A DNA stretch of 63,187 bases, filler included, from Kipferlia bialata (Eukaryota): NCBI GenBank assembly GCA_003568945.1. It is 6 parts of 6 records of this genome, joined end to end, with 100 filler letters (N's around TTAATTAATTAA, not from the genome) between each part and the next. Parts side by side here need not be neighbours in the genome. Positions count along the whole stretch, not along the records: positions 13,118 to 26,106 come from BDIP01001000.1; 5 more parts are not named here. One strand, given 5' to 3'. Positions 1 to 34,542 of the stretch are shown here, piece by piece (the stretch's first letter is position 1; each line of letters begins with the position of its first letter). The position numbers and the translations under genes are program-made. The notes under the pieces were generated by a model. It was not told the origin of the DNA, did not search any database, and saw only the letters and a list, made by a program, of their open reading frames with translations.

Positions 1-258
1 TGGAAGTGACCATGCTGCATACCCCTACTTTCCCTCCGGAGCGTCACCCCCCCCCCCCCCCCTTTCCCCCCCCCCTCTCCCCCCTTCTCTCCCTTGTTGA
101 GGCTTCAATACCCAGTTACTAGTCTCATTCTATGACTCTCTCTCTACCTCCCCCCCTCTCTCTCCCCCCTTGTTGTCAGGCATTGTGCTATGTCGAGTGT
201 GACCCAGTATCTCTCTCTCCCCCTCTGTCTCTTTCTCCCTTTACACCCTTTACACCAG

Positions 259-2649: not shown

Positions 2650-2695
<46 letters not shown>

Positions 2696-5203: not shown

Positions 5204-5234
<31 letters not shown>

Positions 5235-8200
5235 GAATACCCCTACTGAGAGAGATGCTGCCAAGGAGAGGGAGAGGTAGGAGAGAGAGGTATAGTATGA
5301 TATGTTCACCTCATACATATGCTATATACACTATATATACTATGGATACTACATATACAATACACCTAATGAGAGGGAAGACATCAAGGAGAGGGAGAGA
5401 CAGGAGAGGGATGTATATAGTATTGTGTATACACTATGTACTATATATGTATACACTACCAATACTATACAATATATATATATTAGCCGAGAGATGACCT
5501 CTGACGTATAAATCTCTATAATCATTCTTATTAATTAGTATTCTTATAAATATTAACTATAATTCTTAACGTGTGAGGCTGCCAAGTAGAAGGAGAGACT
5601 CGAGACACTATATATGTAGTATACACACCTGATTGTTGTGGTGTTTACTATATATATATATGTATATACTAACGTGTCAGGCCATCAAGGAGAAGGAGAG
5701 GCTCGAGAGGGAGGCCGAGAGAGAGAAGGACAGACTGGAGAGAGAGGTGTGAATATGTATAGGATATTCATCGCTTTCCTTCACTGTATCCCAGTTACAT
5801 GCCCGTATCAGTGTATATCTCTCTACAGCCTCATTTTAGCTTTCCTTCCTTTACTCTTCTTTTAGTTTCTCTCTCCATCGACACCTATATTCTGTTTTGA
5901 AAACAGTGTTTTCTCTCCCCCGCTACACCCTCATTCCAGGCTGACAAGGAGCAGATCAGGCTAGAGAAGCAGAAGGAGAGGGAGGAGAGAGAGAGAGTGG
6001 CTGCCATACTGGCAGAGGCCGCAAAGAGGAGAGAGGTATGTGTATGATAGTATTGTATGGATATTTGTTGAATATATACATATGCATATATATATGTACA
6101 ATCTATGTATGAATATTTGTATCGCTTCCATTCTAGCAGAGGCCGCAAAGAGGAGAGAGGTATACTATATGTATACATATAGCGTATATATATATGTAGC
6201 ACTACTACTACTACTTTTGGCTATTTTCCACTAGACCCTTATTTTTGGTCTAGACCCTTATATCAGGAGGAGAAGGAGAAGGAGAGGCTTGCCAAGGAGG
6301 CAGAGAGAGAGATTGAGAGAGAGAAGGAGAGAGAGGCTGCTAGGGTGAGAGAGGCAGAGAGAGAGGCAGAGAGAGAGAAGGCCAGAGAAGCAGCACGGGA
6401 GGCAGCTAGAATCGCTGCAGAGGTATATCCATTTGTATACACATCCTATACAGTATCTCTTGCACCCTTACTAATTTATGCCACTGGACCCTTTTTCCAT
6501 TAATGTCAGGCCAAGGAGAAGGAGAGAGAGATTGAGAGGGAGAGACTCAAGAAGGAGAGGGAGATTGCACGGGAGATTGCCAAGGAGAGAGAGGCAAAGA
6601 GGGCATTAGAAAAGGTATACATATATATATATGTATAGAGAGAGAGAGAGAGAGAGAGATTGCCAAGGAGAGAGAGGCAAAGAGGGCATTGGAGAAGGTA
6701 TATATACATATATATGTATATATATAGAGAGAGAGAGAGAGATTGCCAAGGAGAGAGAGGCAAAGAGAGCCTTAGAGAAGGTATATATACACATATATAT
6801 ATGGTATATATACCTTCATATACATAGAGAGAGGGGGAGATTTCCAAGGAGAGATTATATGAGTATATTTAGTGTTTGTCCTAGATTGATACCAGGAGAA
6901 GGAGAGGGTGGAGAGGGAGAGAGACGAGGTCTTTACATACATTGTATTCCTATGTATTCTGTATATATGTTTCGTGTTTATAAATGATAATGTATATATA
7001 CTGACTGATCACCAGGAGAAGGAGAGGGTGGAGAGAGAGAGACACGGTCTATGTACTATAGTATATATATATGAATACATTATATACGTTATACGTGTTC
7101 TGGCTATAGGCTGATACCAGGAGAAGGAGAGGGTGGAGAGAGAGAGAGACAAGTTCTATATACTATTGTAATCTATACTCTAGTATGTATGTATATATAT
7201 TCTCCATATACGTTATAGTATGTATATATGTATTCTATATGTATACTGATCACCAGGAGAAGGAGAGGGTGGAGAGGGAGAGAGAGGTCCAGGCTGCCAG
7301 GGAGGCCGCTATCAAGAGAGCGGAGGAGAGGGAGAGAGAGAAGCTGGTGGCACAGGAGACAGCTAGGTATGTGTGCATGTCTCAGTGTATTGAGAGGGGG
7401 GGGGTGCAGGCCCAAGGGGCAGCCAGATAGATACACATATCTGATCTATGCAGTAATAGTGTTACTTACTCCCCAGGCTGAGGGCTGCCGAGAGAGAGAG
7501 AGAGAAGGCAGAGAGAGAGGCCGAGAGGGAAGCAAAGAGAGAGGCAGCAAGAGAGGCAAAGAGGTATTGTATGTAAATATGAATTTTGAATAGATACACA
7601 TGAATATAGACATTTATATGTATTTTTGTATTTAGTAATAGGAGGCAGCAAGAGAAGGCAAAGAGGTGAGAGTTCTTATTGTATGATAATTATTGAAATA
7701 TGTACCTGAGGAAGGATTCTTGCTATACTTTGATACTATTTAGTAATAATGAGAGGCAGCCAGAGAGGTAAAGAGGTGAGTATAACTATAAGATGTATAG
7801 TGTATATATTAAGTAGCAGTAGACTCTTACATGACTCACTTATTCCAATGACTGCCGTTTGACTAACGTTTCAGGCTGAAGAAGGCTGAGAAGGAGAGAG
7901 AGAAGCTCGAGCGTGAGAAGGAGAGAGAGAGGGTCAGAAGAGCTGCAGAGGTACGTACTCTACTTGACATCCCTATATACATGTAGATACTTATGTATAG
8001 TAACAGGGTCACTAGACCCTTATTCTCCCCTGGCCCCTTATTTTCAGGAGGAGAAGGCCCGTATAGCCGCAGAGAGAGAGGCAGAGAGGCAGATGGAGAG
8101 AGAGAGGGCCCTGAAGCAGAGGGAGATCGCGCTGAAGGTATATATATATACATTCTATTATTCTTCAGTGAATGTATTATGTATATGGTATAATCACACC

Positions 8201-8715
8201 ATAGTACCAATTGTACAAGCTGGATTATGTATAACAATTATTACCATGATATATACTAATGATATCAGGCCGAACTAGCTGCCCTCCAGCAGTCCAAGGC
8301 AGAGACAAAGGGTGCAGATATAAAGGGTGCAGAGACCGAGGAGACTGAGCAGGTAACTAGATACAGGAGAGATGTGGTAGTTACTGGACCAAAGAGAAAG
8401 ATAGAGGGTGCAGAGACAAAGGGTGCAGAGACAAAGGGTGCAGAGATAGAGGGTGCAGAGATAGAGGGTGCAGACTGAGGAGGCTGAGCAGGTAACTAAA
8501 GAGAAGGGAGAGACGTAGTAGATACTGGACCCTTAGCTCCCTTTGGACCCTTATGCCAGGAGAAGGCAGCAGAGACTGTAGAGGAGAAGGAGGTTGCAAC
8601 ACCTGAGGCTGTCCCTGCTGAGGAAGTGCCTACTGTGGCAGAGGGAGAGACAGAGACAGAGGCAGAGGCAGAGAGAGAGGGAGAGGGAGAGGTCTCTGAG
8701 GAGCAGGTGGAGTAG
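259..8715 (+). CDS. Multi-exon (~20) protein with long E/R/K/A-rich coiled-coil or single-alpha-helix region and acidic C-tail; 5'-partial, function unknown
   Basis: GT-AG exons splice in consistent phase: IVQCNVECDLGPATQRAVNIVLEECS / SRGMAEVAIEGERQMSR / ... / ESTAAYAETDAISASLTKSCTVAESARDKAVAELLEVK (2903-3016) / EEKEKERLAKEAEREIEREKEREAAR... / ...EGEVSEEQVE, stop TAG 8713-8715. Confidence 0.8.
2714..3351 (+). repeat. Half-exon echo array around exon 2903-3016
   Basis: 5' echoes at 2714 and 2810 (acceptor plus first ~47 nt, running into (CT)n); 3' echoes at 3073-3150, 3199-3261 and a degenerate one at ~3306-3351. Confidence 0.9.
3608..3627. other. Scaffold gap (20 N)
   Basis: N run inside an echo array in an intron. 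Confidence 0.98.
4790..5415 (+). repeat. Five 3' half-exon echoes of GAGAGAGATGCCATCAAGGAGAGGGAGAGGCAGGAGAGGGAG|GT
   Basis: Copies near 4900, 5022, 5133, 5248 and 5371, separated by TA-rich spacers. Confidence 0.85.
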
Positions 8716-9038: not shown

Positions 9039-11672
9039 ATGCTGGGTGATGCTAAGGCTGGGCAGAGCACAAATAGGTCAGTGTCGATACGGTAGCTGAG
9101 CTTCTAGCTCCCTCTCTCAAAATCTATATATCAACAATAGTGTCCTATGTCCGCTCTCCCCCTCTCTTTCTCTGTTCTCACCCTGGTCACCATCTCTGTC
9201 TCTCCCCCCCCCCTCACTTCCAATAATAGTATCCATGTCTGTCTCTCTCTTTCAGTGACCTTACCCAGATGATCAGACCCATCCCGGACACCATATCGCT
9301 CTCTCTCTCTCTCTTTCATCAATAGTATCCATCTCTCTTTCTCTCTCTCTCATCAATAGTGTCCATACCTGTCTCTCTCTCTTTCATCAATAGTTTCATG
9401 TCTCTCTCACTATTCTAGTGTTCTTACGCAGGTCACCCCCATGCCAGACCACATCTTACGTACATAAATAGTGTCCATCTCTCTCTCCGTATATATACAT
9501 ATCAATCATTGTATCCTCATCCAGGTCACCCCCATGCAAGACCACAACATCTCTCTCTCTCTCTCTCTCTCTCTCCGTATATATACATATCAATGATTGT
9601 GTTCTTACCCAGGTCACCCCCATGCAAGACCACACCATCCACCAGATCTGATGCATACAAGGTGTGAACATATCCCTCCCCCCCCATAATCAGTATATAT
9701 ATGTCCACTATGTGTATCTGATGCAAGGGTGACCCCCCTACCACTTTGCAATTCTCTCTCTGTCTTGCTCGCTACCCCCCCCCCCCACCCGCGCTTTTTG
9801 CACTTCTCTCTCTCTACACCCTATTTCCCCTACCCCCACTGGTCTCTCTCTACACCCTCTTTCACCTACGTTCTCTTTTCCCCCAACACGCTTGAGAATT
9901 ATGGATGGTAAAATTCTTTTACATATGGATTGGCGGGGTAAGATCCCTATGTATACAACTTCAAGTTGCTTGTACTCTAACTCCAGCCGTCTGTCTTCAA
10001 GAGAGCACGTCAAAAGTGTGGCGTAGAAGGTGGCGAGAAGAGTATAGAGAGACCAGCCAAGAGAGCCCCTGCAACCTCTGGTACCAGTAGCATTGAGTAT
10101 ATGGTGATCAACTCCACTGCTAGGAGGAGTTTTGATACTGTAGTACACCCGAATGGGGACATGTACACTGGGTATGTGTTAGACGGTGTACCACATGGGT
10201 ATGGCAAGCTGGTCCGTGCGAATGGAGACACATACAAGGGTGAGTGGGAGAGAGGCAGGAGGAGTGGTCAGGGTACATACACTAGTGTGACAGGTGAATA
10301 CACTGGTACATGGGTGTGTGACCTGCAGAGTGGCCAGGGTGTCTGTGTGTACTCAGATGGAGCATGCTACGAGGGAGGGTGGGTAGAGGGGGAGAGGAGT
10401 GGGCACGGTATGTATGATGCTGCAGATGGGTCTACCTATGTAGGAGAGTGGAGCAAGGACAAGATGCACGGTGAGGGTGTGTGCATATACACAGATGCGC
10501 GCTATGAGGGCGGGTGGGAAGATGGTTACAAGTGTGGGACCGGATACTGCGTTAATGTCACAGGGGATGTCTACAGAGGAGAGTGGAAGGGGGGAGAGAG
10601 GAGTGGACAGGGGGAGTGCCTGTATGCAGGGGATGGATCTAGGTATCAGGTAAGGATGGAACTGAAACATGGTTCCTCTCTTTCTCCTTCTCTGTTCTCT
10701 TAATGCAGGGTGCGTGGCTGGGTGACAGGTGGAACGGACATGGGGTGTTACTACACACTAACGGAGACCGGTATGAGGGGGAGTATCAGAGCGGAAAGCT
10801 GCACGGGAAGGTACGCATATGTTCGGGCAAGCTCTCATCATATACACTACCAATCGAAGATAGAGTATTGTGGTATAGGACGGAGTACATAAACAGCTCA
10901 TAGAAAGGTTTTGTACACCTTGAATGACGGTACGAGGTATGAGGGTGAGATGAGGCAGGGTCAGAGGAGTGGGTATGGGGTACAAGTACTGCCGGATGGT
11001 GATAGGTATGAGGGAGAGTGGGAGTGTGACCTATATAGCGGCCATGGTACACACACACACGCCAATGGCAACGTCTATGTAGGAGACCACAAGCGGGGTA
11101 AGATGCATGGGCAGGGGGTGTTCACATTCGTAGATGGCAGGTAGGCTTCTATATCCCTATACTTTAGCTCATATTACTATATCACAGTGATATTATCACC
11201 TATGTCTATACACATAGAAGTATGATAGTATAGGTATTGTCAGTTTCTATCAATTTACTCGGTCCATTATCACTAATGGAAGGCGGTACGAGGGTGAAGT
11301 GAGTTGCGATCACTTCTGCGGCAATGGATCATTTGAATGGCCTGATGGTAGGTGTGTGGTCAACTCAGTAGTGTCATGTTGTTACAGTATACTTCATCAA
11401 CGTGACACTATTCTAGTAAAATTGAAGTTATCTTCTGTATCCTCGCTAAACGTCGAGTCTGTAGGCTGTCTGCGTTCCTTCTCCATCTCTCTGTAGTACA
11501 GAACTTTCCTATAACTTAAGAGTAAGTCATGAGTTATGATAATGCCAGGAAATACGTGGGACAGTTTGTACATAGCCAGATGAATGGACGTGGGACATTC
11601 ACTGATAGTGATGGGACAAATATCCACGGAGAGTGGCTTTGTGGGAAATTCATTCAATGCAGACCACCATAG
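9039..11672 (+). CDS. MORN-repeat protein
   Basis: ATG 9039; exons about 9039-9076, 9613-9661, 9987-10649, 10709-10810, 10908-11140, 11283-11351, 11549-11672 (TAG). Many YxGxWxxGxrxGxG repeats, e.g. NGDTYKGEWERGRRSGQGTY and DGDRYEGEWECDLYSGHGTH. Confidence 0.9.
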
Positions 11673-13017: not shown

Positions 13018-13117
13018 NNNNNNNNNNNNNNNNNNNNNNNNNNNNNNNNNNNNNNNNNNNNTTAATTAATTAANNNNNNNNNNNNNNNNNNNNNNNNNNN
13101 NNNNNNNNNNNNNNNNN
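13018..13117. other. Artificial contig linker
   Basis: N run, TTAATTAATTAA (stops in six frames), N run; 100 nt in total. Confidence 0.98.
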
Positions 13118-13444
13118 CAGGGGAGTGGAAGAGGAGACGGGCTAGGCCCAGACGCTGCTTCTCTCCACCTGACGTTAGGAAGTACTAACCATATCACTCA
13201 AGATGTATAGTATATGTACGTAACCATAGGAATAGTATTAGTGTATGTATAAAGATAGAGTATGATACAGGATTTTTCTAGTAGTACCTGATAACATCTC
13301 GGCCCAGGGCTCCCTGGACTCCAGGGTGTAGGACTCAAGGAGGTAGTCCAGCTGACACACGTGGAGGACAGACTTGAACACATAGGCAGGGGTGCTCACG
13401 ACATCAGCTGGGGGTGAGAATGTATATATATACTATAGATACAT

Positions 13445-13479
<35 letters not shown>

Positions 13480-16400
13480 ATGCCTTGAACACATAGGCTG
13501 GGGTGCTCACGACGTCGACTTGGAGTTAGATCATATATATATACTACATATAGTATTAAAAGGGTATGCATATAGTATTCACAGTATAGGGGTATCACCA
13601 ACCTTCTGGCAGAGGGTAGCAGATCTGGCCCCTGAGGCTACCCCCATGCACCACGTAGGTGTGCTGGGGGACGAAGAAGACACCTAGATGTGAGAATATA
13701 CATATATATATATGGATAGATATATGCATGTACTTATAGGGAGAGAGGCTGTGTGCTGGGGGACGAAGACACCTGGTACCTAAATGGATACTCATAACGA
13801 TGTGTACAAGGTATATGCCAACATACAAAGAAGGAACAATACTAAACTCACCCTCGTTTCCGACGACTGTGGGCCTCTCAATGGTGCCTCTCTTGTGGTC
13901 CCAGAGACCTGGGGTGAGTGCATTCATATTCCCTTTATAATATCTGTAGAATATACACTAAGATACACTCTCTTGGGATCCCGAGGGTATACGTATCAAT
14001 TGACTATATGTGTCATGCCTGCAATGACCCTGAGGGTCGATGACTTGCCACACCCACTGGGCCCTGTGACCACCACTCCACCCTCACCACTGCCAACACG
14101 GAAGGACAGATCTCTAGGGGTTAGTGTATAGCGATATACATATAGTGTATATACACTCATACAGTATACAATTCCACCCTCACCACTCCCAACACGGAAG
14201 TATAGGTTCATAGGGTCGGGGTAAACCCATATAGTGCAACTAGTCCCAATTACATACATATATGTAAAGCCATATCCATATCATCATGAACTATTCATAT
14301 CAATATGCACCATTACCTGACGAGTGTCTCCTTGGCAGGGGACACGACATCAAGCTCCTGGACAGCAACCCTGAAGGGTGAGACATATGTAGTAATATAT
14401 ACATACACTGAGAGTGAGAGAGTAACATCCCTGATGGTAAGCAACCTTGGGGTGAGATATATTCAATATATGAGAGAAGCAACCAGACCGAAGAAGAAAC
14501 AAACAGGAAGAATGCGATACATGTGTCTTAGTCCATGCACGATATATACACATGTATATACATACATACCTGTCTGAGTCTATGCATGATGTCTCCAGTG
14601 GAGGCATGACCTCCAGCTGTTCATCCAGCTGGGAGACACGGTTGAGGGTACCGAAGAAGGCTGCGACCTTGAGGTTATGACACTTGCAATACATTTATCA
14701 CAATACATTGTTATGTAAGGAGTGTCAGGGTAATCATGCAGTCAATGACGGTTCCAAAGAAGGCAGATACCTGGAATTTACTATCATTATAGATATACAT
14801 CTATGTATATTCATAATAATAGATACAGTACCTGGGGTGCCAGCATGAGCAGACCTGTCAACACATTGACATTATACACTCATTATATATAATGAACTAT
14901 AGTATATAATTATACATATATGCATATACCTAGGTATATAGAATATATATAGATATAATACCTGTGGTGCCAGCATGAGGAGACCCGTCAGCGAGTGCAT
15001 CATGTTGTTAACCTCCTGGGGGTGAGGGAGAGGAAAACACCTGCTCGAGGAGAGTGAACTCGGAGGGATATTCAGCAATGAATATACCATTATCATCTAT
15101 ATATATAGAAAGAGGGAGAGAGAGACATGTGTACCTGCTCCAGCAGACTGAACTCGGAGGGGTCGATGGATGGGAACAGCCAGGAGACAATCATGAGCTG
15201 GGGTGAGATAGTATGAATAGATTGATAGATACACATGAAGATATATATACCTATACATGTATAGTTAAGTAGATAGTAGGTGACGGTGGGGTCGATGGTG
15301 GGGAACAGCTATGATACAATCATGAGCTGGGGTGAGAGGTATATGTATACAGATATATAACACAGAGAGAGAGAGTCATATATGAATATACATAGATATA
15401 TAGTATGTTATCTATTTGAGTCACATATAACGGCAGCGCATATAGGTAGCGCAGAACTGATAGATGGTGTATATCGATATTATTATATTACAATAATATA
15501 TATGGAATGAGAACGTACCGGCAGCACTGTGCACCCAAACTCTGCTTAAATACATATATAAATGACACATATAAGAATAGATAGAATATATAGTATTATC
15601 AGTGCTGACGTACCGGCAGCACTGTGCAGCCAAACTCTGCTGTCTTGCGTAGATGTGATAATCATAGAGTGTATTTACATTTATATACATAAAGTATATA
15701 CATATAGTAGTACATACCGGCAGCACAGTGCAGCCAAACTCTGCTGTGAAGTGGTTAAACCAGGATGCTCTGGCTGCGTGTCTGGCCAGGGAGATCTGGA
15801 TGTTAAGGGAGTAGTATTGATATAGAAATGAATTGCAACCTACTACAATGTATTACAATATATTACACTCTATTAATATATGCATAAACAACAAATAGGA
15901 TGCCCTGGCAGCGTGTCTGGCAAGGGAGATCTAGGGTGAGTGTGACTGAAATACAACAGAGAAGGGAGAACTATTATACCATGTCTGGCCAGGGAGATCT
16001 GGACGGTTACATGGGGTTAAACAGAAGTGTACCTATGTATGTATATTAGTCAATGACTACATTGAAAGTGTTTCAAAATCAATAGTAGTATTATAATAAA
16101 AATTCACAACCCCACGTGTCTGTCGAACAATGACCCCAGGGCAGTATCGGCAACTAAAATATATATGTATATATCATACTTGAATATACTCATCTATCTA
16201 TTTCCAATTCTATATCTATATATATGTGTGTGTATATGTATCAATGTGCAAACCTGTCTGTCGATCAATGGCCCCAGGGCAGCGTCGGCAAAGGACCCGG
16301 CCTCCTCCTCTCCCTGGGGTCAGAAGGGGTATAGTTACCATAATTAGAGCACTCTTGTAAAATGCAATGGACTCGCAGAACTATATCAATATTATAGAGT

Positions 16401-19400
16401 AATACAGTACCATACCTACAATGATAAATACAGTATCTACCAATCGACCATTACCTTGTAGAATGCGATGGACTCGCAGAACTCCCTGCTTCTGGAGTGG
16501 GTGTAACGCATGGCTCCCTCTGCCTCCTGAGAGGTCAGTACAGGGAACAATATAGAACCAAAACAACAATTAGATGTATCATAACTATCCTCACCTCAAC
16601 AGTCTAACCAATATGTAAAGAACATACTGACAATCACTTAACTATTCCACTCCTACCTGTAGCTTGTTTGTGATGGCTGGAATGGAACGGGTGGCGATGA
16701 CCTGATTGTCAGATTATATCATTGTGAACATAGACTCTCACACATACTTACAGAGGGAGATGCAGACCAATGATGTGTACCTGAATGAGCACGGACATGC
16801 CCAGGAACACCTAATGTGTACAAAAGCCCTCTATATATGGAGAAAGAGAAAAAGAGAGTACAAATATACCAGAGAATAATACCTGGATGAGCACGAACAG
16901 TCCAAGGAACACCCAAGGCACCACCTGGAGTCTCCAGTCTGCACCCTTAATGTCAGTAACATATATAGTACTTAACTATACCGAAATGTACCAATTACCA
17001 ATGCGTCCTACAGGGTGAGCGTCAATGACAGTCTACAAGTCACCAAATAATTGACGTAATCAAAACTGTCGTCTACTATACTCCATTACTTACTACTTAG
17101 GACTCTCTCCATACCTCAGTGTTGAAGAAACTGTAGCTGATGATCAGACAGTTGATGACGGTGAACCACAGGCCCTGGAGTAAGTATAACAATAGGATCT
17201 CAACTATATACTGTACATTGAATGTATTGGAATTATCTCAGTTGATGACGGTGAACCACAGGCCCTGGGAGTGAGAAGGAAACAAATGAATGTACCATAT
17301 GCAATGTCACAATACCCTAAAAATACCATGACTGTATATATACATATATCCATATCTATACATACATGTCTTACCTTAGTCACGGGCACTATGCCCTGTA
17401 CCGATGGCACAACACAACATAGTACTATATATTTACTGGAATATATAAACATTGGAATATATACATATATATACATACATACTGACCTTAGTCATGAGCA
17501 CTATGCCCTGTACTGATGGCACGATACTGCCAAAGAGGGAGTTGCCAGCCACCCTTGGGTCAGATCTCATATATATATATACATATATAGAGAGAGAAAG
17601 AGAGAGAGCGAGAGTTGCATTGATACTGCCAAAGAGGGAGTTGCCAGCCACCCTGGGGTAAGATAGATCCCATATGAATATATATATATATATATGCAAA
17701 GACAGAGAAATAGAGAGAAGGATAGAGAGTTGCCAGCCCTGGGGTGAGACTCCATACTATTATATGTTGTTACATATATATAGAGAGAGAGAGTTGCATT
17801 GATACTGCCAAAGAGGGAGTTGCCAGCCACCCTAGGGTAAGGATCCACACCCACACACACACACATATATGTATATACATATATATATATATATTGAGAG
17901 AGTGAGAGGGAGAGGGAGTTGGCAGCCACTCTATGGTTAGATCCGATAGAAGCATGTAAATAGAAATACATAGAGAGAGAGAGAGAAAGTGAGAGCTAAT
18001 GTTAGGACCAATGAGACAAATGAGAGAGAGTTGGAGCCACTTGCAGCATAGAGCTGACATCATTGGGATATATACCTAGCGTCTGCACTGATTCTCTGTC
18101 AAGATCTAACAGTCCCATATATAGATATATATATATATAGATGGAAGCACAGTAGTAAAGTATATAATATAATGTAGTTAGTACCTTGCGTCTGCACTGA
18201 TTCTCTGGTCTGGGGCATCGATGCCTGTGGTAAGTACAATGGAGAGACAACATATCAAAACCTTCATTATGTATCTATAAACTATGTAATACATGGAAGG
18301 TTTAGATATTGTAAGAGCACGCAGTCGTGTAACACATGCAATTATATATAATTGAATATATATACACACATATATATACATACCTTGCACTGTCGTTGCC
18401 ACTCTGTAGTAGTTTCAACATCCATAGCAAAGCATATATACACTACTGTACCCGTGTTCAATCTTCAACATAAACACCTATATATGTATCAAGGTATATG
18501 GTTATACCTTGCACTGTGGTTGCCACTCTGTAGTAGTTCCACCATCCATAGCATTGTATATTTGGCAAATATATATAGGATAGAGAATATACTGTCAGAG
18601 TACCCTGTCTCCTAGTATATATTATATATGTTTATTTGTGTATATACCTTGCACTGTTGTTGCCACTCTGTAGTAGTTCCTCTCCGCAAAGTACTTCTTG
18701 TGCAGGTTCTTGGTCAGCCTCTCTCTGAGGGTGAGTGTGATATATACAACCCCCATTCTATAAATAATATTCTTCATAATATATACTTCAATAAATATAG
18801 AGGTATTGTATGTATAGCTGTGTCATTACCTGCTGAAGTTGTTTGTGGTGTATGCTGTAATGTCACAGAGCATTGAGACAATACACACCATGCCAAGTGC
18901 TATAAGGAGGGAGATGGTGTCGGAGGTGGACTTGGTGGTGTCGGGGACGGCTGGGGTGTTAGAGTGTACTATATATGTATAGAAAATATACTATGTGTAT
19001 AGTACTCTATTTGACAGTCTGAGCGTTGGATTAGGTGGTGTCGGAGACGGGTGGGCATAGACTGAGGCTCCATACACACCAGAGAGTATTAGCGTCAGTA
19101 ACGCAACAATAAGTAGTTCACTTATAGTACTGATACACGAGACTGTACCTTCTCCTGCCTGGCACGTGACATCTCCAATGATGTTTGATATCCAGTACTG
19201 ACAGTTCAGGGTGACCTGGGGTGTAAGACTCAATAATAGATACAGTACATACATTATCATATATATATTTAAATATATATATATATAACAAATAACAATG
19301 TGTGTGTCATATCTATCCTATCGAACAATACCTTGGGTAGCACTGCTGTGATGATCAGTGACAGTATGCAGTAGACAGACGGTGCAGACAGGGCATGGCC

Positions 19401-22400
19401 AAAGGCACCATGGAGATAGCGCCCCAGGGACTTGATGGGGGAGGGAGGGGGGACAGCTGGGGGGCGGGTGTCAGTGGCAGCCTGGAGTCGGAGTTTGTAT
19501 TTATATATATTTATATATATATTTATATATATATATATGTGTATATATATACATGTATGAATATGTATTGATATGTATATATGGAGGGGGGACAGCTGGG
19601 GGGCGGGTGTCAGTGGCAGCCTGTAGTCAATATTGGTATACCATCAAAGACTAAAGGATGACCAATGAAGAAGTATTGTTGGGATCTGATGTTCAAGTGG
19701 AAGGCTGGAGTCATAGTATACCCAATATACACCAACTATGCTATAGTATCTGAGTGCAGATAGTCCATACCTTGGGGGGCAGGGGCTCTGGGTACACCTT
19801 CCTGGCCACAATCTAGGGTAAGAGGGTGATAGTGTAAGTGTGATATAGTGTCCCACTCAATGACACCGACTAGTAAGGGTATTCATGTCCACACTATACT
19901 CATGTTCTCCCATACCTCGCTACTGGGCGGTGTATAGATGGGGTTGTGCTGCAGGTACAGCTCTGAGGTGAGACAGTTATATACTCGACTATACCTGAAG
20001 AGGGATACATTCTTCTGATGAAGATATACGCAAATCTAGAGTGTACCTGAACTCTAGACCCTGGGTATATGAATAATCATGATATAGGCAATATGAACAC
20101 ACACCTGAGCTCTCGACCCTGTGAGTGTATCTGTCACTGAGGACAAGGACAAGCTGGGGGTAAGCTGGCAAGCACACAAACAAATACCGGATACCCAGTA
20201 ATAACCAGGTGTCAGTGTGTTGATATTCTGCATATTCGTACAACGCAGGTACACGTATAGTACCTGGTGGAATGGAGTGACTGTCCTTATAATATCATAT
20301 ACTTGACCAATCTAGCTAGTATACAGTAATAGTATATGTATACGTGTGTGTGTGTACCTGGTGGAATGGGATGACTGTCCGTCTGTGTGCCACAGACACC
20401 ATGGTGATGCCCCTGGAGACACACTCAGACAGGATGCTAGGGGTAAGAGTACACTATTCATATACTAATAGACAGAGAGAGGGAGGGAGACATGTTACAG
20501 ACACCATGGTGATACCCCTGGAGACACACTCGGACAGAATGCTGAGAGTGAGACATTCATATTCATATATATATATATATATATATACAGCGGGAGGGAG
20601 TGTAACATACTTAGTAAAGAGTCACATACAAATACATATACAGCCTATCCCCCTACCTCTCCTCCAGGTCCACTGGCAGGGCAGCTGTAGACTCATCCAT
20701 CACTGCGAAGGAAGGGGAGTGGAAGAGGAGACGGGCAAGGCCTAGACGCTGCTTCTCTCCGCCTACAGATAAGACTATAAATGTAGCAATGTACCCACTA
20801 GTTATAGCTATTTAAAGAAAACATTGGAAACATATATATATGTATATTAGTATACTAATTACTAGTACCTGACAGGATCTCTCCCCAGGCAGCAGCATCG
20901 GTGAGGTCGAACCTGGCAGTTAGGGTGATATTGACAAATTGCATATAGGACATAATATACATATAATAGGATAGTATATACCTGAAAGTTAGGACTATAC
21001 TGGGAGAGGTGCTGAAGTAGAAAGACTAGTATAACAGATATTCATGTAATCATACTTATATATAGTATATACCTCTCCAGCAGGTAGTCCAGCTGACACA
21101 CCCACAGTACACACTAGACATAGTATATATATGAGTCGTCTATATAGTATACATAGTATATATTATATACATAGTACATACCTCTCCAGCAGGTAGTCGA
21201 GCTGGCACACCCTGAGTGCCTCGAGGACTCTCTCTCTCTCCTCCTCCCTCTCTGTGTCACCGTATGTCGATGGGCCACCCTCTACCCCGTGGGCATCAAC
21301 GTAAGTATCACCAAGGGGATCCTCATCAACATGCTGATGTGAGTATATGGGAGGTGTAACTACACTATAGTGATGTATACAAGACATGGGCATCAGCATA
21401 GGTGTCATTGAGGGGGTCCTCTACAAGGGTCTGGTGTCATATAGCGGTTATCATACACGTGTGTATATACATATAGATGTAACTATATTCGTTAAGGTTT
21501 ACCTCTCTCTCAGCTGTGGGTGTTGCTGGGTATGTGACCTCCCCCCAGAGTGAGGAACAAGTATACATACACATACATTGATAAAGAATACACATCAAAT
21601 ATGAGTGCACCCACCTCTCTCTCAGCTGTTGGTGTTGCTGGGTACGTGACCTCCCCCCAGAGTGAGGTGTGGGTGAGGTAGGGGGTCTGGGGCACGAACA
21701 AGGTATCAGCAGGCAGAGAGACATGACCTGAAAGCATTAGACATCTATTGAGAGCATAAGCATATTAGCAATCAATATCAATATACATGTATGTATCTCT
21801 CTCTCTATATATAGCACACTGTACCTGATGACACTGGCCACAGACCGGCCAGACACCTGAGCAGAGAGCTCTTGCCTAGGAGTGAGAGGCATACGACGAT
21901 TCAATCTGTGTATTACGAGTATATATCTATACATACCTATGCCACTAGGTCCCATGATGACCATGCTCTGACCCTTGGGTACAGAGGCAGTCACACCGGT
22001 TAGGATCTCACGACCCTAGGGTAAGATACATAATCTAACGTCTGGACAACCAACCCATATTTGGCTCTGGACACCCTGAGTAGAATCAGCATCATTACTG
22101 AGTAGGCATATATATGTGTGTGTGCGAAGATAGAGGTGCCTCACTCCTGGAGTTGCAGTAGAGAGAGAGGCCCTGTCTATACAGACTACATATAGAGATA
22201 TATTGAGACTCTCCTCCTGGTGTGGCTACGGACAAGAGAGTCTAGCAGCGGCCTCGTCAGAGTGTGTATATACTATATGTACTGTGTATGTACAATATAT
22301 ATACGATGTAGATATGTATATACATAACTCACCCCAGGAGTAGCTATAGACACCCCGTGCCACCCCAACTCAGTGTCGTCATAACAGTACACATATATTC

Positions 22401-25400
22401 ATTATGTATATACATATATAGATATTACGTACTCCTGGTGTTGCAATAGATACTCCATGCCACCCCAGCTCAGTGTCGTCACATATATAGTATATATATA
22501 CTATATATAGTGTGTAAACATACAGCACGTACCCCAGGAGTGGCTAGAGATACCCCGTGCCAGCCTAGCTCTGTGTCGTCAGATGCCTCAGCCTCATGGG
22601 CATCGGCAGTCACGAAGTAGTCTCCATCTCTCTCTCTCTCTCTCTCAGTCTCTGTCTCAGTCTCACTCTCTGTCTCTCTGTCACCCATGAAACCAAGCTC
22701 AGTCCCAATGGATCCAACACGCCTAGGATAAGTAGAATACCATCATTCATACTACAAGTATATACTGTACATATATACTGTACTATTCATACCTAGTGAG
22801 ACCAACAGCCGTGGCTACACATAAGGCCAGCAGTATAAAATATACTAGAGGTATATATCTCTAAACACAATATACCTAGTGAGACCCACCGCTGTGGCTA
22901 TGCTGGGACCCAGACCAATGACCCAAGTGACACCCACAAGGAGCTGGGATTAGTAACTATAAGTAATGTATATATATATGTATACTAGAGAAAAGGAATG
23001 GTATATATATGCACATATATATACTAAATATATGTATACGTATATGATGTATTGAAATAGTGAACTAGGACCCAAGTGACACCAACGAGGAGCTGGGATC
23101 AGTTACAATTATATATATATACACATATATATATACTAGAGAAAGGGAATGGTATATATATGCACATATATATACTTAATATATGTATTAGTATATAAGC
23201 GTTGTGTTATAGTGACCCAGGACCCAAGTGACACCCACTAGGAGCTGGGGTCAGCTACAATATGATTGTGGAACGCTATATTATATAAATATATATATAT
23301 ACATATAAATATATGCATATATCATATATATACTATACATCATCCCTCCATGGACATCCTGACTGTCATGATGGCTGTGTCACCACATGATGGTATATCT
23401 ATACATACCTATCTATATATAGACTATAGACATACTATTCTCTCTCTCTCTCTCAATATATATATATCCTATATACACTATACATCTCACCTCCATGGAC
23501 ATCCTGACCGTCATGATGGCTGTGTCAATGTCCCTCAGTATAGAGAATAGATATACTATTCTCTCTCTCTCTCTCTCAATATATATATATATAGTATATA
23601 TAAACACACCTCCATTGACATTCTGACTGTCATGATGGCTGTGTCACTGGACAGACACTCTTCAGAGTTCAGGACCTAAGTGTAAGGTATATATATATAG
23701 AGAGAGATTTGTATGTTTACATGCATACCTGGTAGAGCAGGAACGAGTAGGGCAGGGCATATATATATATATACATAAGATATGATGAATCAAACACTAA
23801 ACAGATACTAGACCTATTGTTCATATAAATCCATACCTGGTAGAGCAGGAATGAGTAGGGCAGGGCAGCGGCAGCCACGATGTTGACAAACTGGAGTCAG
23901 GATAGGAATAGATATTCCTATGGAAATTTACAGTAGAGCTCTTGTAATATCTCTGTCAAAACATAATAAACAATTATCTACATATACCTCATTCAGCTCT
24001 CGATGTTGAAAAACTGGGGTAAGCGAGGATACGGTAGATACTGTAAAACACACTCCTTTCGATACTGATACTGATACTGATACTCACAACATATTAAACC
24101 ACTATCTACATATACCTCATTCAGCTTTGGCAGAATCCTCCTCCACACCAGCCTGTGACTGTTGGCAATGACAGCCTCCAGCTGCTTGTCGGCAACGGCT
24201 CTTTCGTGCTAGGGGTGAGGTGTATACATTATGGTATATATTTATATATATATATGTCTAGATATACTATCATGATATACAATATGGCAATGACAGCCTC
24301 CAGCTGCTTGTCGGCAACGGCTCTCTCATGCTATTGGTTAGACAGCTATATAGAGGTAAGACATGTATATACTATCATCATATACAATATGGCAATGACA
24401 GCCTCCAGCTGCTTGTCGGCAACGGCTCTTTCATGCTAGGGGTGATATTTATACATTATGGTATATATATATATATATATATGTGTGTGTCTAGATATAC
24501 TATCATAATATATAATATGGCAATGACGGCCTCCAGCTGCTTGTCGGCCACGGCTCTTTCATGCTAGGGGTGAGATCTATGTTAACTATCTGCGGCACAT
24601 ATTTTCATATATATATATATATATAAACTATGTGGTCTCCAGCTGCTTGTCGGCAACGGCCCTCTCGTCCTACGGGTAAGATATGTATATAGGTAACATT
24701 ACGACCACTGAGCCACATACAAAGAGAGAGAGAGAGAGAGAGAGAGAGATCAAACTGCTTGTCGGCAACGGCCCGCTCGTCCAAGAGGTGAGATTTAGAA
24801 AGCTATATAAATACAACGATGGGAACTAGTAAGAGAGAGAGGAGACAGAGAGAGAGAGAGAGAGAGGTACCTCGTCTCCGCTGAAGAATGCAATGGCCTC
24901 TGCTCCCTCTCTCACAGCTACATGGTGGTATCTGGAATAAGGGTGTAGAGAGAGAGAGAGAGAGAGAATTCAACAACCCTCTCTCACAGCAACATGGTGG
25001 TATCTGGGATAAGGATGTGGTGGGAGAGAGAGGTATATATATCCATTGCAGATGCTCACAATTGAACTGTTAACTGGAATAAGGGTGTAGAAGTGGAGAG
25101 AGAGAGAGAGAGAGAGAGATGGATCTACCTGAGCTGTCCCTCGAGTCTCTCCTACTCTGTCTTGTGTATAATGTTATATATATAATGTTACATATATATG
25201 AACGTGTACATGTCATGTATCTCTATATGAATATGTCTACCTGAGCTGTCCCTCGAGTCTCTCCTGCTCTGCAACAGGTATATATATACAAACTCATATA
25301 TGGATATGTTTATGTACATATTGATATATATACACTATACATTGATATATATACCTGAGCTGTCCCTCGAGTCTCTCCTGCTCTGCGACAGGTGCCACTA

Positions 25401-26020
25401 GGGGCTGGTTGAGGATCTGAGGGTCAGTGATATATATATATACTTATATATGTATATGACATATATACAAAGGGGGCTGGTGGAGGATCTGAGGGTAAGT
25501 GATGTATACATACTATTACTATATAGTACTATCCACAATGATATTCAATATAACACACCTTAGTCAAGACCAGCTGCACCAGGACGTATCCCACAATACA
25601 TATTAACTCTATAATAGTAATATATATATACATATATATATATAAGTACTATACAATATGTATAATACTTGATCACCACTGATGATACATGCCTTAGTCA
25701 AGACCAGCTGCACCAGGACGTATCCCACAATGCTCCATATAAACATATGTAATCATAGATACTATACATGTTGTACTATATATATCATATAATAGCCAGT
25801 GTATAACTTACAATACATGCCTTGGTGAGGACCAGCTGCACCAGGACGTATCCCACAATGCTCCAACTCATATAGTATATGAGTCATATACATGTATACA
25901 CCATTACTATATAGTATCATATAATATGACATACCTTTGTCAAGACTATCTGCACCAGCACGTATCCCACTATGCACCACAGTTGCCAGGCCGGGATACC
26001 CACATGGAGGACGGCAATGG
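13118..26020 (-). CDS. Full-size ABC transporter, subfamily D (TMD-NBD-TMD-NBD); partial at both ends
   Basis: EAA motif 1 EQERLEGQLRYHHVAVREGAEAIAFFSGDE (~24870-25400). NBD1: Walker A GPSGIGKSS, FVPQTPY, signature LSGGEKQRLGLARLLFHSP, Walker B AVMDESTAAL, SVAHR. Continuous linker exons. TMD2: APDQRISAD and EAEGAMRYTHSRSREFCESIAFYKG. NBD2: GPSGCGKSS, FFVPQHTY, LSGGEKQRLGLARLLFHSP. Confidence 0.92.
22141..22580 (-). repeat. 3' half-exon echo array in ABCD gene (DDTELGWHGVSLATPG)
   Basis: Live segment 22533-22580; echoes 22433-22480 and 22333-22380; degenerate copies at ~22215 and ~22145. Confidence 0.9.
24116..24781 (-). repeat. 5' half-exon echo array in ABCD gene (HERAVADKQLEAVIA)
   Basis: Live exon 24116-24208; echoes 24286-24330, 24391-24435, 24519-24563, 24637-24669, 24755-24781. 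Confidence 0.9.
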
Positions 26021-29200: not shown

Positions 29201-32200
29201 ATCGATGCTAAGTGCAGCACCTCATGTATGAATATATGTGTGTATATATGGTGCAGTGTGGTGATATTTGTGATGCATACTTCTCACTCTAGGCCGGCAT
29301 GGAGAGAGAGAGAGAGATGTCCGTTGGTGCCGAACAGCGTGGTGTCTCTGTGGTGCGTCGGAGAGTGCCCCCCTCCCACTCTAGGTAATCTCAAATACTA
29401 CTCACAATACTATATAATTGTTTATATTCTTATGTAATTATGAAATCTTAGAATATACTCCCACTCTAGGACACCCCTTGCCCCGTACACACCCCTACCC
29501 ACACCTGAATCCTTAAATACTATATAAAATACTATAGTATTATATGTAATCTAATGAACCACTCCCACTCTAGGACACCCCTTGCCCAGTACACACCCCT
29601 GCCCACACCTGACCTGGCTCAGATCAGTGGAGGGGCTGAGACACAAGTATGTATTATTTATATCTATCTATATATATTTATATATATTATATCAGTTCTT
29701 TGGAGGGGCTGATACAGGTAGGTATCCCTTTTCCGTTGGATAATTATTGCATGTATTCCACACTTTTGTATATGCATATATCTTTGTGTAGAAGGTTAGT
29801 TACTGACCCCCCAGGGCGATGCCCAGTACGGTGACCTATCCACCAGTGGCCTAGGTGGTAAGGATAGGGAGAGAGAGAGAGGAACATCCCCACATGCAGG
29901 GGGGTCCCCTCTCTCATCCTCCAGCCGTCTCGACCGTTCAGACCGTCTGGACCGTTCTGGCCTCTCCCCTACCCTGGCTGGCTCAGACTCCTCTATATCA
30001 GGGTCTCTGAGACTGGAGACACTACTCAAGGGACTGGGACTCTCTATCACGGCAACAAGGTGCGGTATCGCAGTATATACGACGTAGAAAACATTTGTAT
30101 CGAGTATGCTTATGATTCTCTTCTCTAATTTTTAGGCTCCAGACCCCCCCTCGCTCTGTGTCTCTGTCGGTGCTGCACAGGCAGAGGGTGTCACTCAGTC
30201 TGCAGGTGATTATTGTTATATATATGTGAATTATATATACACATGTATGAATATACAAACTATGGATATATACATGTGTGTGTCTCTGTCTGTCCTTCAT
30301 AGACAGAGGGTGTCCCTGAGCTTACAGGTGTGGACTCATACGTATTGTTATACATTTTTGTCTATGTGCGCATATGAGTACTATATACTATCCTTAAGGC
30401 AGAGGTTTTCCTTGAGCGTCCAGATAGTATAATAATAACCAATCAGATGTATTCGGGTATTATTTGGAGACATTTATCAGTAATATAGTAAAGTTCCCTT
30501 ACCTCTAGGACCAGCTCCTAGCCCTTGTGTGTCTCAGTCCTATATACACATCATATTATATATATATATATATATGTATGTGTGTGGGTGGGTGTATTTC
30601 CATGTCTTACGCCTAGGATCAGTTACTGGCCCGTGCCCTTGTGTGTCTCAGTCCTGTAGCAGTCATACTACACATTAATACACATGTAACAGTATATATA
30701 TATCGGTGTCCTTAACAACAGGATCAGCTCCTGGCCCGTGCCCTCCTCTGTCTGAGGCACAGCCAGGCACAGACCGGACAGGGGTACAGAGACATGTTCA
30801 ATGCATTCTATGCTAGGTATGACTCTATGTATATAATTATCTTTTAGGTGTATGACATACGGGTGTATGTATATACAGTATGTAGTCGAGTACATACAAA
30901 GCAGGCTACTATATTTCTGTAACGACCTTTACGAGTACATACATATTTGTATATATGTCTAACCCCTAGGCACCGCGATTGCCAGATGATCCCAAGAGTA
31001 TATGAATATGTATATAGATAGTATATGTATATATATATATATAAATATAGTATATGTATATATAGTATGTTCTATTCATGTATATTGTGGATATGTCTGA
31101 CTGCTAGGCACCGTGATGGCCAGGTGATCCCAAGTGGTGTGTCACCCATACCCACCCTGGCACTCAGGTATGAATGTGTATATATATATATATACGCATA
31201 TGGGTAATTCATTTTAATATTCATTAGAGAAATCAATCACTGATTGTCTCACCCCCAGGTCCTCCTAGACCCAGCCCAGACATAACTTTGGATATTTCCC
31301 TCCACTATTCCTCTATGTTGGTGTATGTCTCTACAGCATGTGCATCTCACCCCCAGGTCCTCCTATCCCAGCCCAGACAGACTCGCCCACCTGCAGAGGG
31401 AGAAGGTACATGATATGGCAATGTATTCGTATTTGAATGTATTGTTTACATTTCGCATCTCACAATCAGATCTTTGAGACCCCTATCTTAACTCTTACAT
31501 GCATATATAATTATATATACTCACATTTAGATCTTTGATACCCTGGACGTCAACCTCGACTACGAGCACCCCTACGCCGAGACGTCCAGCCCCACCCCCG
31601 CACCCCTGTCCCTCACTCCATTCCTCTCAATGCTGTGTGACAAGTATGCACTGTCACCCACATCCACACTCGCACAGTCACCGGCCGGGGTGTCACCCTC
31701 CAAGGTATGTATGTATGTGTATATGTATTTAGTTATACAAATTTGTATATATATATATACCCAATAATGTATAGTTGTCTCTTTGTCCTAACCCCCAGGC
31801 TGACTGTGGTATTGAGGTACACAGTGTATCATAGATACATGTATAGTGTAATATAGCTATATGTTATCATACTATGCATGCTATGCCTGACCCCAGGCTG
31901 ACTGTGGAATTGAGGTCCTGACTCGCCCTGCATCAGGGGCATTCCACCAGGTACAGATCCTGATAGATATATACTAATGTGCAAAGAAATACTATTGTAT
32001 ATTAATATATATAGAGAGAGAGTGATATATATATTTCTATACATTCCTCAGGGACATTCCACCAGCTGGGGTCATTATGCATCCCTCATATATGACCATA
32101 TCTATCCTATGCTATATATGTGTCCCAAATGTAGTATATATATATATTGAGAGACAGGATTCATATCCTCTAACCCCAGGTCAAGGCTGGTGTTGCCACC

Positions 32201-34349: not shown

Positions 34350-34386
<37 letters not shown>

Positions 34387-34542
34387 GGAGGAGTGGACAG
34401 GGAGTTACTCTCTGTCGCACCAGTGGCAGGTATTATTCTTGCATAATTAGTTAGTTCACTCATGTATATTTATACATTTGGGTATATAACTCACCCCAAG
34501 CACTGTGATCCCGTGTTCCTCTGACATTGTTGACTGTCCCAT

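Follow-up and report, generated by a model that had tools for sequence, protein, structure and literature searches.

Results

The window that we analysed is a 63,187-nucleotide stretch of the Kipferlia bialata genome (six joined parts of assembly GCA_003568945.1, filler included). On its minus strand lies a partial gene for a fused double ABCD-type half transporter (13119..26020), with a 39-exon model supported by a spliced match and by PF06472 and PF00005; in this model one exon was lengthened to a GC donor, which restored the second Walker A motif, and one upstream exon was added. The focal exon, of 190 nt (22533..22722, minus strand), codes for part of an ABCD-type transporter, one that is identical to a named K. 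bialata protein; it has a spliced match to the public protein P0001 and 100% identity over 63 aa. It is followed by a 517-nt intron (22016..22532), delimited by the spliced match and by the acceptor score (the true acceptor, ahead of 22015, scores 7.7), and within this intron the final 49 nt of the exon are repeated. We call such partial exon copies echoes.

Read on the minus strand, the live exon end (22580-22533) is DDTELGWHGVSLATPG, and echo 1 (22480-22433) and echo 2 (22380-22333) both read DDTELGWHGVSIATPG. The differences listed in the preliminary description were reproduced exactly: live end and echo 1 differ by 11 nt over 10 codons (nine synonymous changes plus L>I), and the two echoes differ from each other by 9 nt, 9/9 of them synonymous. 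Between the live end and echo 2 there are 7 nt differences over 6 codons, with L>I as the sole amino-acid change, and the three copies are roughly equidistant (11, 7 and 9 differences per 48 nt). The probability of nine synonymous differences out of nine is 4e-6 if both echoes were neutral and 3e-4 under duplicate-then-decay, in a context of 22 adjacent echo-echo pairs examined. The motif TGACGA begins at 22581, 22481 and 22381, and again at 22259, and a GT directly follows the live end, echo 1 and echo 2 at 22532, 22432 and 22332, in 100-nt steps. These positions confirm the shared TGACGAC breakpoint and the 100-nt spacing described previously, but the exact 100/100 equality is partly luck; across the arrays of the window, periods are more alike within than between arrays (p 0.007, 14/15 arrays used) and rarely equal.

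Spacer 1 (22481..22532, minus strand, opening with the live GT donor) and spacer 2 (22381..22432, opening with the GT of echo 1) are 52 nt each. It had also been claimed that no AG acceptor precedes the echoes, which holds for spacer 2, where there is no AG, whereas the TA-rich spacer 1 contains a single AG whose context is not acceptor-grade (score -0.3). Splice-site scoring found no usable acceptor ahead of either echo. Past their first 6 nt, similarity between the two spacers does not exceed that of shuffled sequence (12/45 vs 15.3). Two extra, decayed copies lie further into the intron (best p 0.001 and 0.003 vs shuffles, with 3/6 comparisons with the live end, echo 1 and echo 2 not significant). 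Echo 3 (22259-22215) keeps the start motif and an end encoding ATPG and has lost the donor (p 0.004 against the live end, 0.001 against echo 1 and 0.096 against echo 2), and echo 4 (22175-22145, left edge approximate) encodes ATPG followed by GT (p 0.003 against echo 1; the comparisons with the live end and echo 2 were not significant).

A scan detected 87 partial exon copies, each with one splice site, in 52/73 introns of two genes. The transporter gene holds 52 of them in 27/38 introns. The other 35 are in 25/35 introns of a gene on the next contig (26236..38353, plus strand), for which we made our own 36-exon model; one hit in this gene, at 29559, was excluded because the end of the exon is identical to the acceptor motif. 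The second model has no homolog or Pfam support: one exon search gave 0 hits among 818 candidates, and another gave one weak unnamed match (E 7e-4), left unused. The detector used a score cut of 26, with a null rate of 0.7-0.9% per exon-intron pair, and heavily decayed copies fall below this cut. Nearly all echoes, each a partial copy of the adjacent exon, extend to the exon edge adjoining the intron; 41 are donor-type and 46 acceptor-type, and where an intron has both types the donor-type lies upstream (13/13). The splice dinucleotide is retained in 33/41 donor and 37/46 acceptor echoes. No echo is longer than 65 nt, even next to exons of 120-401 nt, and 8 stop codons occur among them. P0001, a gene prediction, uses the first donor and the last acceptor throughout, skipping all echoes. 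Contig 1 is also rich in echoes; it was left out of the codon counts below because its predicted frames are unreliable. Neighbouring genes are nearly echo-free (0/26 introns, and one doubtful hit in 12 introns).

The silent character of the focal differences recurs in independent cases. In the second gene, one donor echo (30279..30327, plus strand) carries 10 synonymous and 0 non-synonymous differences over 16 codons, and another (34385..34429, plus strand) 8 and 0 over 14 codons. Overall, the 87 echoes differ from the live exons at 126/511 fourfold sites (24.7%) and 94/1770 zero-fold sites (5.3%), with pooled pS 0.270, pN 0.055 and pN/pS 0.20 (95% interval 0.15-0.28, bootstrap over the 52 introns), and the 22 neighbouring echo-echo pairs give pS 0.235 and pN 0.037. 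Under duplicate-then-decay, nine simulations screened with this detector gave pN/pS of 0.44-0.62. Therefore, the majority of each echo's ancestry passed under protein-level selection, which supports, well beyond the focal case, the core of the earlier proposal: echo bodies served as functional exon ends, and did so through most of their past. In the transporter gene alone pN/pS is 0.17 (0.11-0.24), and the bias persists for all four bases and with edge codons trimmed; the interval for the second gene is 0.15-0.43, the upper end of which nearly touches the simulated range. Amino-acid differences are only marginally more conservative than random changes would be (mean BLOSUM -0.17 vs -0.56; 72 changes, descriptive). 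Zero-fold differences climb toward the breakpoint end, from 0.04 to 0.10-0.19, which fits a crossover within the body; we do not use this rise as evidence, because alignment edge effects fit it too.

Fourfold changes are symmetric (GC>AT 42, AT>GC 33, p 0.36) and the fourfold composition of echoes equals that of live exons, though the introns are 35-37% GC, whereas zero-fold changes are skewed toward AT (45 GC>AT vs 24, p 0.015). Decay, in the form of stops, lost splice sites and AT-biased zero-fold changes, is superimposed on the echoes. If they were ordinary mirage repeats, whose layout is already known (PMC3087553), each echo would be a past state of the exon, frozen in place, and would show a silent bias because only the live copy is under selection. 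Decayed echoes agree with this, but it implies a pN/pS floor of about 0.5 (simulated 0.44-0.62, against 0.17 observed in the transporter gene), and it does not account for fourfold changes free of the AT bias that decay gives at zero-fold sites. We consider it very improbable, and for the transporter gene largely refuted. In silent-cassette gene conversion of the antigenic-variation type, donor cassettes diversify the amino acids of one expressed locus. The nearly intact echo bodies might suggest such a programmed system, in which silent stored copies replace exon ends and so vary the protein, but a pN of 0.055 against a pS of 0.270 in two unrelated genes does not fit amino-acid diversification, and the mostly silent variation spans most introns, including those of the ABC transporter core. 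The cassette reservoir proposed in the preliminary description is unsupported, and we find it barely credible.

The alternative that a second, diverged genome copy was the source, acquired by hybridisation or polyploidy, with homeologs ~25-30% apart at silent sites, mitotic exchange and later loss, would also provide two working copies per cell and make a record population diversity unnecessary. Near-identical bodies number 17 of 69, about double the 8.6 expected from a single uniform rate, which hints at two classes. However, the three focal copies are about equidistant (11, 7 and 9 of 48 nt), variable fourfold sites within arrays have three states in 5/29 cases, fourfold divergence is not overdispersed (p 0.13) and protein searches did not find a homeologous protein, so that this origin appears unlikely. 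Nor did metagenome scans and protein searches reveal a second haplotype; none of the 596 and none of the 68 pattern matches in two metagenome scans was confirmed as a relative. P0001 is the sole member of its protein cluster, and divergent alleles are therefore absent from the public protein set. The provision that echo haplotypes might trace to exons of paralogous genes was checked at the protein level, and the nearest paralog, KIPB_007471, was rejected as a source, being only 59% identical and differing at 8 of the 16 focal residues.

We also considered that alleles or co-cultured strains were joined in tandem during assembly. The published K. bialata assembly is fragmented and based on short reads (PMC5874029), and the culture section does not state clonality. 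Against this, every spacer-to-echo junction is a unique sequence that must sit inside a read, the focal copies diverge every few bases, and the same window has both decayed copies and echo-free contigs. An artefact is highly improbable.

Outside the exon-derived bodies, the repeats are hardly recognizable. At least two copies share a breakpoint within 3 nt in 11/15 arrays. The intron flanks have an identity of 0.59; unrelated introns already reach 0.56, and a point divergence of 25% would leave 0.75. Flank identity is at least 0.8 in only 2/86 echoes. In an array of five acceptor-type echoes in the transporter gene (24285..24780, minus strand), one unit does match the live unit in the intron part too (flank identity 0.97). 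Echo bodies vary mainly at silent sites, both against the live exon and against each other, and flanks are barely above unrelated introns. Among detected transporter echoes no increase of divergence with distance was seen, and the steady outward decay of a treadmill is absent, within the limit that the score cut misses heavily decayed copies. A fixed synthesis tract predicts a trade-off between echo length and spacer length; among 36 first-rank echoes there was none (rho 0.06). In intron gain by tandem duplication, one copy of a duplicated proto-splice site provides the donor and the next copy the acceptor. This origin was set aside as well, with an AG at the end of the breakpoint context in just 2/27 donor echoes of the transporter gene.

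Of the echo splice sites, 61% of donors and 74% of acceptors reach at least the 10th percentile of live sites. The missing partner site, at live-grade score, is present in the spacers of 2/41 donor echoes (acceptor) and 1/46 acceptor echoes (donor), compared with 2.8 and 2.0 expected from shuffles, where exon definition would predict depletion. Mutually exclusive duplicated exons require both splice sites per copy, and were rejected on these counts and on the absence of partner sites at the focal echoes. The scores bear on the possibility that echoes are translated, an unusual spliceosome or non-canonical homology-guided joining linking the exon 5' part to the echo, with present-day selection explaining the silent bias directly. 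Homology-guided RNA joining was among the models of the preliminary description; we know of no precedent for it in spliceosomal genes. The K. bialata spliceosome is reported to be reduced (87/174 searched proteins, and no snRNA candidates found; PMC6679479), which together with the scores of the echo sites would speak for this possibility. On the other hand, the partner-site counts leave no canonical route, 8 stop codons and an AT bias among zero-fold changes are found in the echoes, and the public protein skips them all by joining first donors to last acceptors. Translation of echoes is fairly unlikely in our judgement, and we grant only a minor chance that their ends enter mRNA by splice-site-independent joining, with half-exons under direct selection genome-wide.

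Discussion

We favour, with modest confidence, an explanation in which echoes exchanged sequence with the live exon ends of other alleles, either by unequal crossover or by gene conversion; the population would be a recombining one, and its fourfold diversity would be close to 0.25. The echoes are tandem repeats of exon-intron junctions, and their exon parts were likely copied from the working ends of other, highly divergent alleles. Recombination out of register, in a population with a sexual or parasexual process, likely placed them there. Crossover between divergent alleles, as suggested in the preliminary description, fits the echo data best, although it is deduced from a single allele, and gene conversion could be the process as well. 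The process may have begun with a ~100-nt duplication spanning one splice site, and this founding echo would be tolerated because it has a single splice site and the outermost donor or acceptor remains in use. Between alleles, only exons would be similar enough for pairing, and therefore an echo could align with the working end of the exon in another allele. Units added by unequal crossover would inherit the founding breakpoint and the rough period, and gene conversion would refresh the echo body. The near-absence of echoes in neighbouring genes is left unaccounted for. The several echoes that differ at every codon position (26393, 27573, 14550), the 8 stop codons, the surplus of near-identical bodies and the interval of the second gene, which nearly touches the simulated range, also weigh against this explanation.

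Exchange between alleles would require an allele-to-allele fourfold diversity of about 0.25 (JC 0.30), above the 0.20 reported and called extraordinary in Schizophyllum commune (PMC4576712). Direct repeats ~100 nt apart, such as the focal copies, serve as substrates for single-strand annealing, of which metamonads seem capable (PMC8516963). Frequent intrachromosomal collapse of the arrays could then make an echo the live end, and a huge population would purge lineages with damaged echoes; the ceiling of 65 nt beside exons of 120-401 nt looks as if longer echoes had been lost. For a divergence of 0.25, by our reasoning, the rates of collapse and of mutation would have to lie within roughly a factor of ten of each other, and purging would therefore again need a population diversity of ~0.2 or more. 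This indirect selection is quite improbable as a separate cause, and it complements allelic exchange rather than escaping from it. As for the machinery, Fornicata are reported to have two Dmc1 and no Rad51A, and metamonads to lack NHEJ and retain meiotic genes (PMC8516963), and mismatched base triplets are stabilised by Dmc1 residues (PMC6719624). By analogy with these reports, loss of Rad51A and NHEJ together with two Dmc1 paralogs would favour mismatch-tolerant exchange in K. bialata.

If exchange with divergent alleles is the correct reading, the introns of one genome store samples of other alleles, and population diversity and past recombination could be read from a single assembly. It would constitute genomic evidence that lineages of a free-living metamonad exchange DNA, although no sexual or parasexual process is reported to have been observed directly in Metamonada (PMC8516963), with silent diversity at or above the highest published value that we found (0.20, PMC4576712), and would link repair by Dmc1 only, free of NHEJ, to a scar that can be seen in the genome. 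A single genome would thus be a record of hidden sex and extreme diversity in a free-living protist. A further question is by what means a reduced spliceosome passes over near-perfect decoys, of which each gene has dozens.

The closest known system is that of the amphioxus 'mirage' minisatellites, described in the globins BflGb6 and BflGb9, Adh3, troponin C and PGBD5 (PMC3087553, PMC3902484). As in those accounts, tandem copies of similar unit size cross the exon-intron boundary at either side, and AG or GT survives in many units, though not in every one (here 33/41 and 37/46); amphioxus is also highly heterozygous and unequal crossover has been proposed there, which resembles our favoured explanation. 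The reported BflGb6 units are 81-100% identical, whereas here the exon part is kept and the intron part is hardly alignable, the silent bias is strong, the host is a metamonad and 52/73 introns are affected. Judged by sequence, the echoes appear to behave like a mirage and are probably best classed as a variant, in which whole-unit similarity is lacking (flanks 0.59 vs 0.56; at least 0.8 in 2/86). The word 'Synonymous' does not occur in the main text of PMC3087553, and we found no report of such a silent-site signature or echo density. The 37-bp VNTR in intron 7 of human F7 is likewise described as silent donor repeats downstream of the donor in use, the most upstream one, but as a single locus with identical pseudo-sites, no acceptor-type copies and no allele-like silent divergence (PMC1557585). 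Accounts of intron gain by tandem duplication share an intragenic duplication that leaves exon-like intron sequence (PMC2891723, PMC3265369); there, a duplicated proto-splice site creates a new intron (PMC2891723), whereas echoes lengthen existing introns and form no new exon-intron pair. Finally, in the hypervariable fungus S. commune crossovers prefer exons (PMC4209137), and very divergent alleles, with synonymous diversity of 0.13-0.20, recombine preferentially there (PMC4209137, PMC4576712). Its abstracts do not describe exon-end repeats, and its data come from crosses and many genomes, whereas the diversity proposed here derives from one genome and would be higher.

Gene models and occurrence of echoes

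The single protein match of the focal exon (22722-22533, minus strand) was KIPB_004621 of Kipferlia bialata (100% over 63 aa), whose gene encodes a fused double ABCD-type half transporter; the two half transporters, fused into one chain, occupy 13119-26020 (minus strand). Mapping KIPB_004621 back onto the window gave 38 exons with GT-AG introns, to which we added one upstream exon, and we extended one exon to a GC donor, obtaining a stop-free model of 39 exons and 1004 codons. The public protein model truncates the exon at 14113-14019 (minus strand) at 14088 and lacks the second Walker A motif, which the GC donor after 14019 brings back, in frame. The second gene, on the next contig (26236..38353, plus strand), is a hand-corrected gene-predictor model (36 exons, 1405 codons, stop-free) that received no outside support in homolog and domain searches. 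N spacers separate the contigs at 13018, 26107, 39187, 52266 and 60312.

We detected echoes (partial exon-end copies carrying one splice site inside the neighbouring intron) by local alignment of each intron against its two flanking exons, with a score of at least 26 and a null of 0.7-0.9% per pair. The ABCD gene has 52 echoes in 27 of its 38 introns and the second gene 36 matches, one of which was excluded, in 25 of 35, so that 52 of 73 introns contain echoes. These comprise 41 copies of an exon end with its donor and 46 of an acceptor with its exon start, and donor-type copies precede acceptor-type ones in all 13 introns with both. Echo length has a median of 33 nt and a maximum of 65 nt, even next to long exons, while first-rank units in the ABCD gene span 47-149 nt, mostly about 100, resembling echo-free introns of the same gene. 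At 15067-15016 (minus strand), a GT-intact echo stops just 25 nt short of the true acceptor of a 119-nt intron.

In a model-free count, the density of local repeat clusters per 10 kb was 22-32 in contigs 1-3, 0.8 in contig 4, 3.8 in contig 5 and zero in contig 6. Echo-poor genes have GC-richer introns with less TATA, and two intron regimes coexist in one genome. Contig 4 and the greater part of contig 5 (39287-58900) have hardly any echoes, and their introns are GC-richer and TATA-poor; a predicted minus-strand gene there has echoes in 0 of 26 introns, and one local repeat cluster was counted over 13 kb. In contrast to the remainder of contig 5, three local repeats lie in predicted exons at 60259-58990 (minus strand), whose product resembles, by eye, an adenylate/guanylate cyclase domain. 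A coiled-coil, E/R-rich gene at 1-8700 (plus strand) carries long echo arrays, including six copies at 4776-5433; some of its copies may be entire short exons, and its arrays were left out of the counts because its reading frames are uncertain. A long ORF at 9987-10642 (plus strand) contains glycine-rich repeats resembling MORN repeats.

Echoes differ from live exons mainly at silent sites

Compared with the live exons, the pooled 87 echoes of both genes showed a pS of 0.270 and a pN of 0.055, with differences at 126 of 511 fourfold and 94 of 1770 zero-fold sites. The ratio of replacement to silent differences was 0.20 (0.15-0.28) overall, 0.17 (0.11-0.24) in the ABCD gene and 0.25 (0.15-0.43) in the second gene. 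A frozen echo would accumulate silent change on both branches and replacement change on one, so its ratio should not fall much under one half; simulated duplication followed by decay, analyzed with the identical detector under nine settings, gave 0.44-0.62. The echo as a frozen older copy is thus largely rejected for the ABCD gene, and the silent bias is real. Neighbouring echoes are biased likewise when compared with each other (22 pairs, pS 0.235, pN 0.037). Fourfold differences have no directional skew and the echoes match live exons in codon composition, while zero-fold differences are skewed towards AT, as decay predicts. The fourfold differences comprise 36 transitions and 90 transversions, transitions being no commoner than random. 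With omega assumed to be 0.05-0.15, the ratio of 0.20 would make an echo non-functional for just 12-32% of its branch. Since one lineage allows one live copy at a time, the echo must either be expressed alongside the live copy or have been live in another genome copy.

The focal echoes illustrate this bias. Rechecking the sequence bore out the preliminary description: the live exon and echo 1 differ by nine synonymous codons plus L>I, the two echoes differ from each other by nine changes, all silent, and they share a start and have donors spaced 100 nt apart, with no usable acceptor. Nine of nine silent changes have a probability of 4e-6 if both copies are neutral, and of 3e-4 under duplication and decay. 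Two additional decayed copies lie downstream of echo 2. Of the interpretation first offered, descent from working exon ends is supported by the low ratio, whereas a reservoir of cassettes is disfavoured by changes that are mostly silent. At 25865-25559 (minus strand), three donor echoes share residues not in the live exon (I>L in 3/3, C>S in 2/3), and two of them end in GC instead of GT.

Candidate routes and array structure

The missing partner splice site was found at live-grade score in only 2 of 41 donor-type and 1 of 46 acceptor-type spacers, so that echoes have no canonical splicing route into the transcript. Use of echoes at the RNA level keeps a small probability as an alternative to the mechanism proposed below; for K. 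bialata, a reduced spliceosome is reported, and no snRNA candidates were identified (PMC6679479). The nearest paralog, KIPB_007471, has 59% identity to the ABCD gene product over its first half and, differing at the protein level within the focal peptide, was rejected as the echo source. No second haplotype was found among the public proteins searched or the metagenome contigs scanned.

Breakpoints are shared in 11 of 15 arrays and a rough period is common within arrays (p 0.007), indicating that the units of an array come from one founding junction. Intron flanks of echoes have an identity of 0.59, against a null of 0.56 and the 0.75 that 25% point divergence would give, and remain barely over null in 16 of 17 cases beside near-identical bodies. 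Exon bodies and their flanks have thus gone through different histories, which is what exchange limited to exon homology would produce. The echoes could stem from two homeologs rather than many alleles, a source that is weakly disfavoured by the mutual divergence of all three focal copies, by array sites with three states (5 of 29) and by the lack of overdispersion (p 0.13).

Proposed mechanism

On balance we lean towards an origin of echoes by out-of-register exchange between an echo and the live exon end of an inferred other allele. A tolerated duplication across one splice site would come first. In a cell with two alleles, misaligned pairing would then bring the echo opposite the live exon end of the other allele. 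Unequal crossover would raise the unit number and conversion would refresh the bodies, and echoes would decay between such events. This would require a fourfold diversity of about 0.25 (JC 0.30).

The published recombination context would fit this mechanism. Fornicata are reported to lack Rad51A and to have two Dmc1 paralogs, and metamonads to lack NHEJ and keep meiotic genes, sex not having been observed (PMC8516963). Dmc1 residues promote recombination across mismatches, including templates 20% divergent (PMC6719624). In S. commune, crossovers prefer exons (PMC4209137) and silent diversity reaches 0.20 (PMC4576712).

Against the mechanism, the diversity it implies exceeds the highest published figure we found, some echoes are clearly decayed, stops are present in 8, and there is an excess of near-identical bodies (17 observed against 8.6 expected, of 69). 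Nor does it account for echo-free genes.

Comparison with known boundary repeats

Among the papers listed in a literature search that covered mainly open-access work, none describes such repeats in Kipferlia, and the string "duplicat" is absent from the main text of the genome paper (PMC5874029). Tandem copies of exon-intron boundaries are reported as the mirages of amphioxus (PMC3087553, PMC3902484) and in human F7 (PMC1557585). The layout of the Kipferlia echoes is like theirs, but whole-unit similarity is missing in Kipferlia. What Kipferlia adds to these systems is the silent-site signature and the density, 52 of 73 introns.
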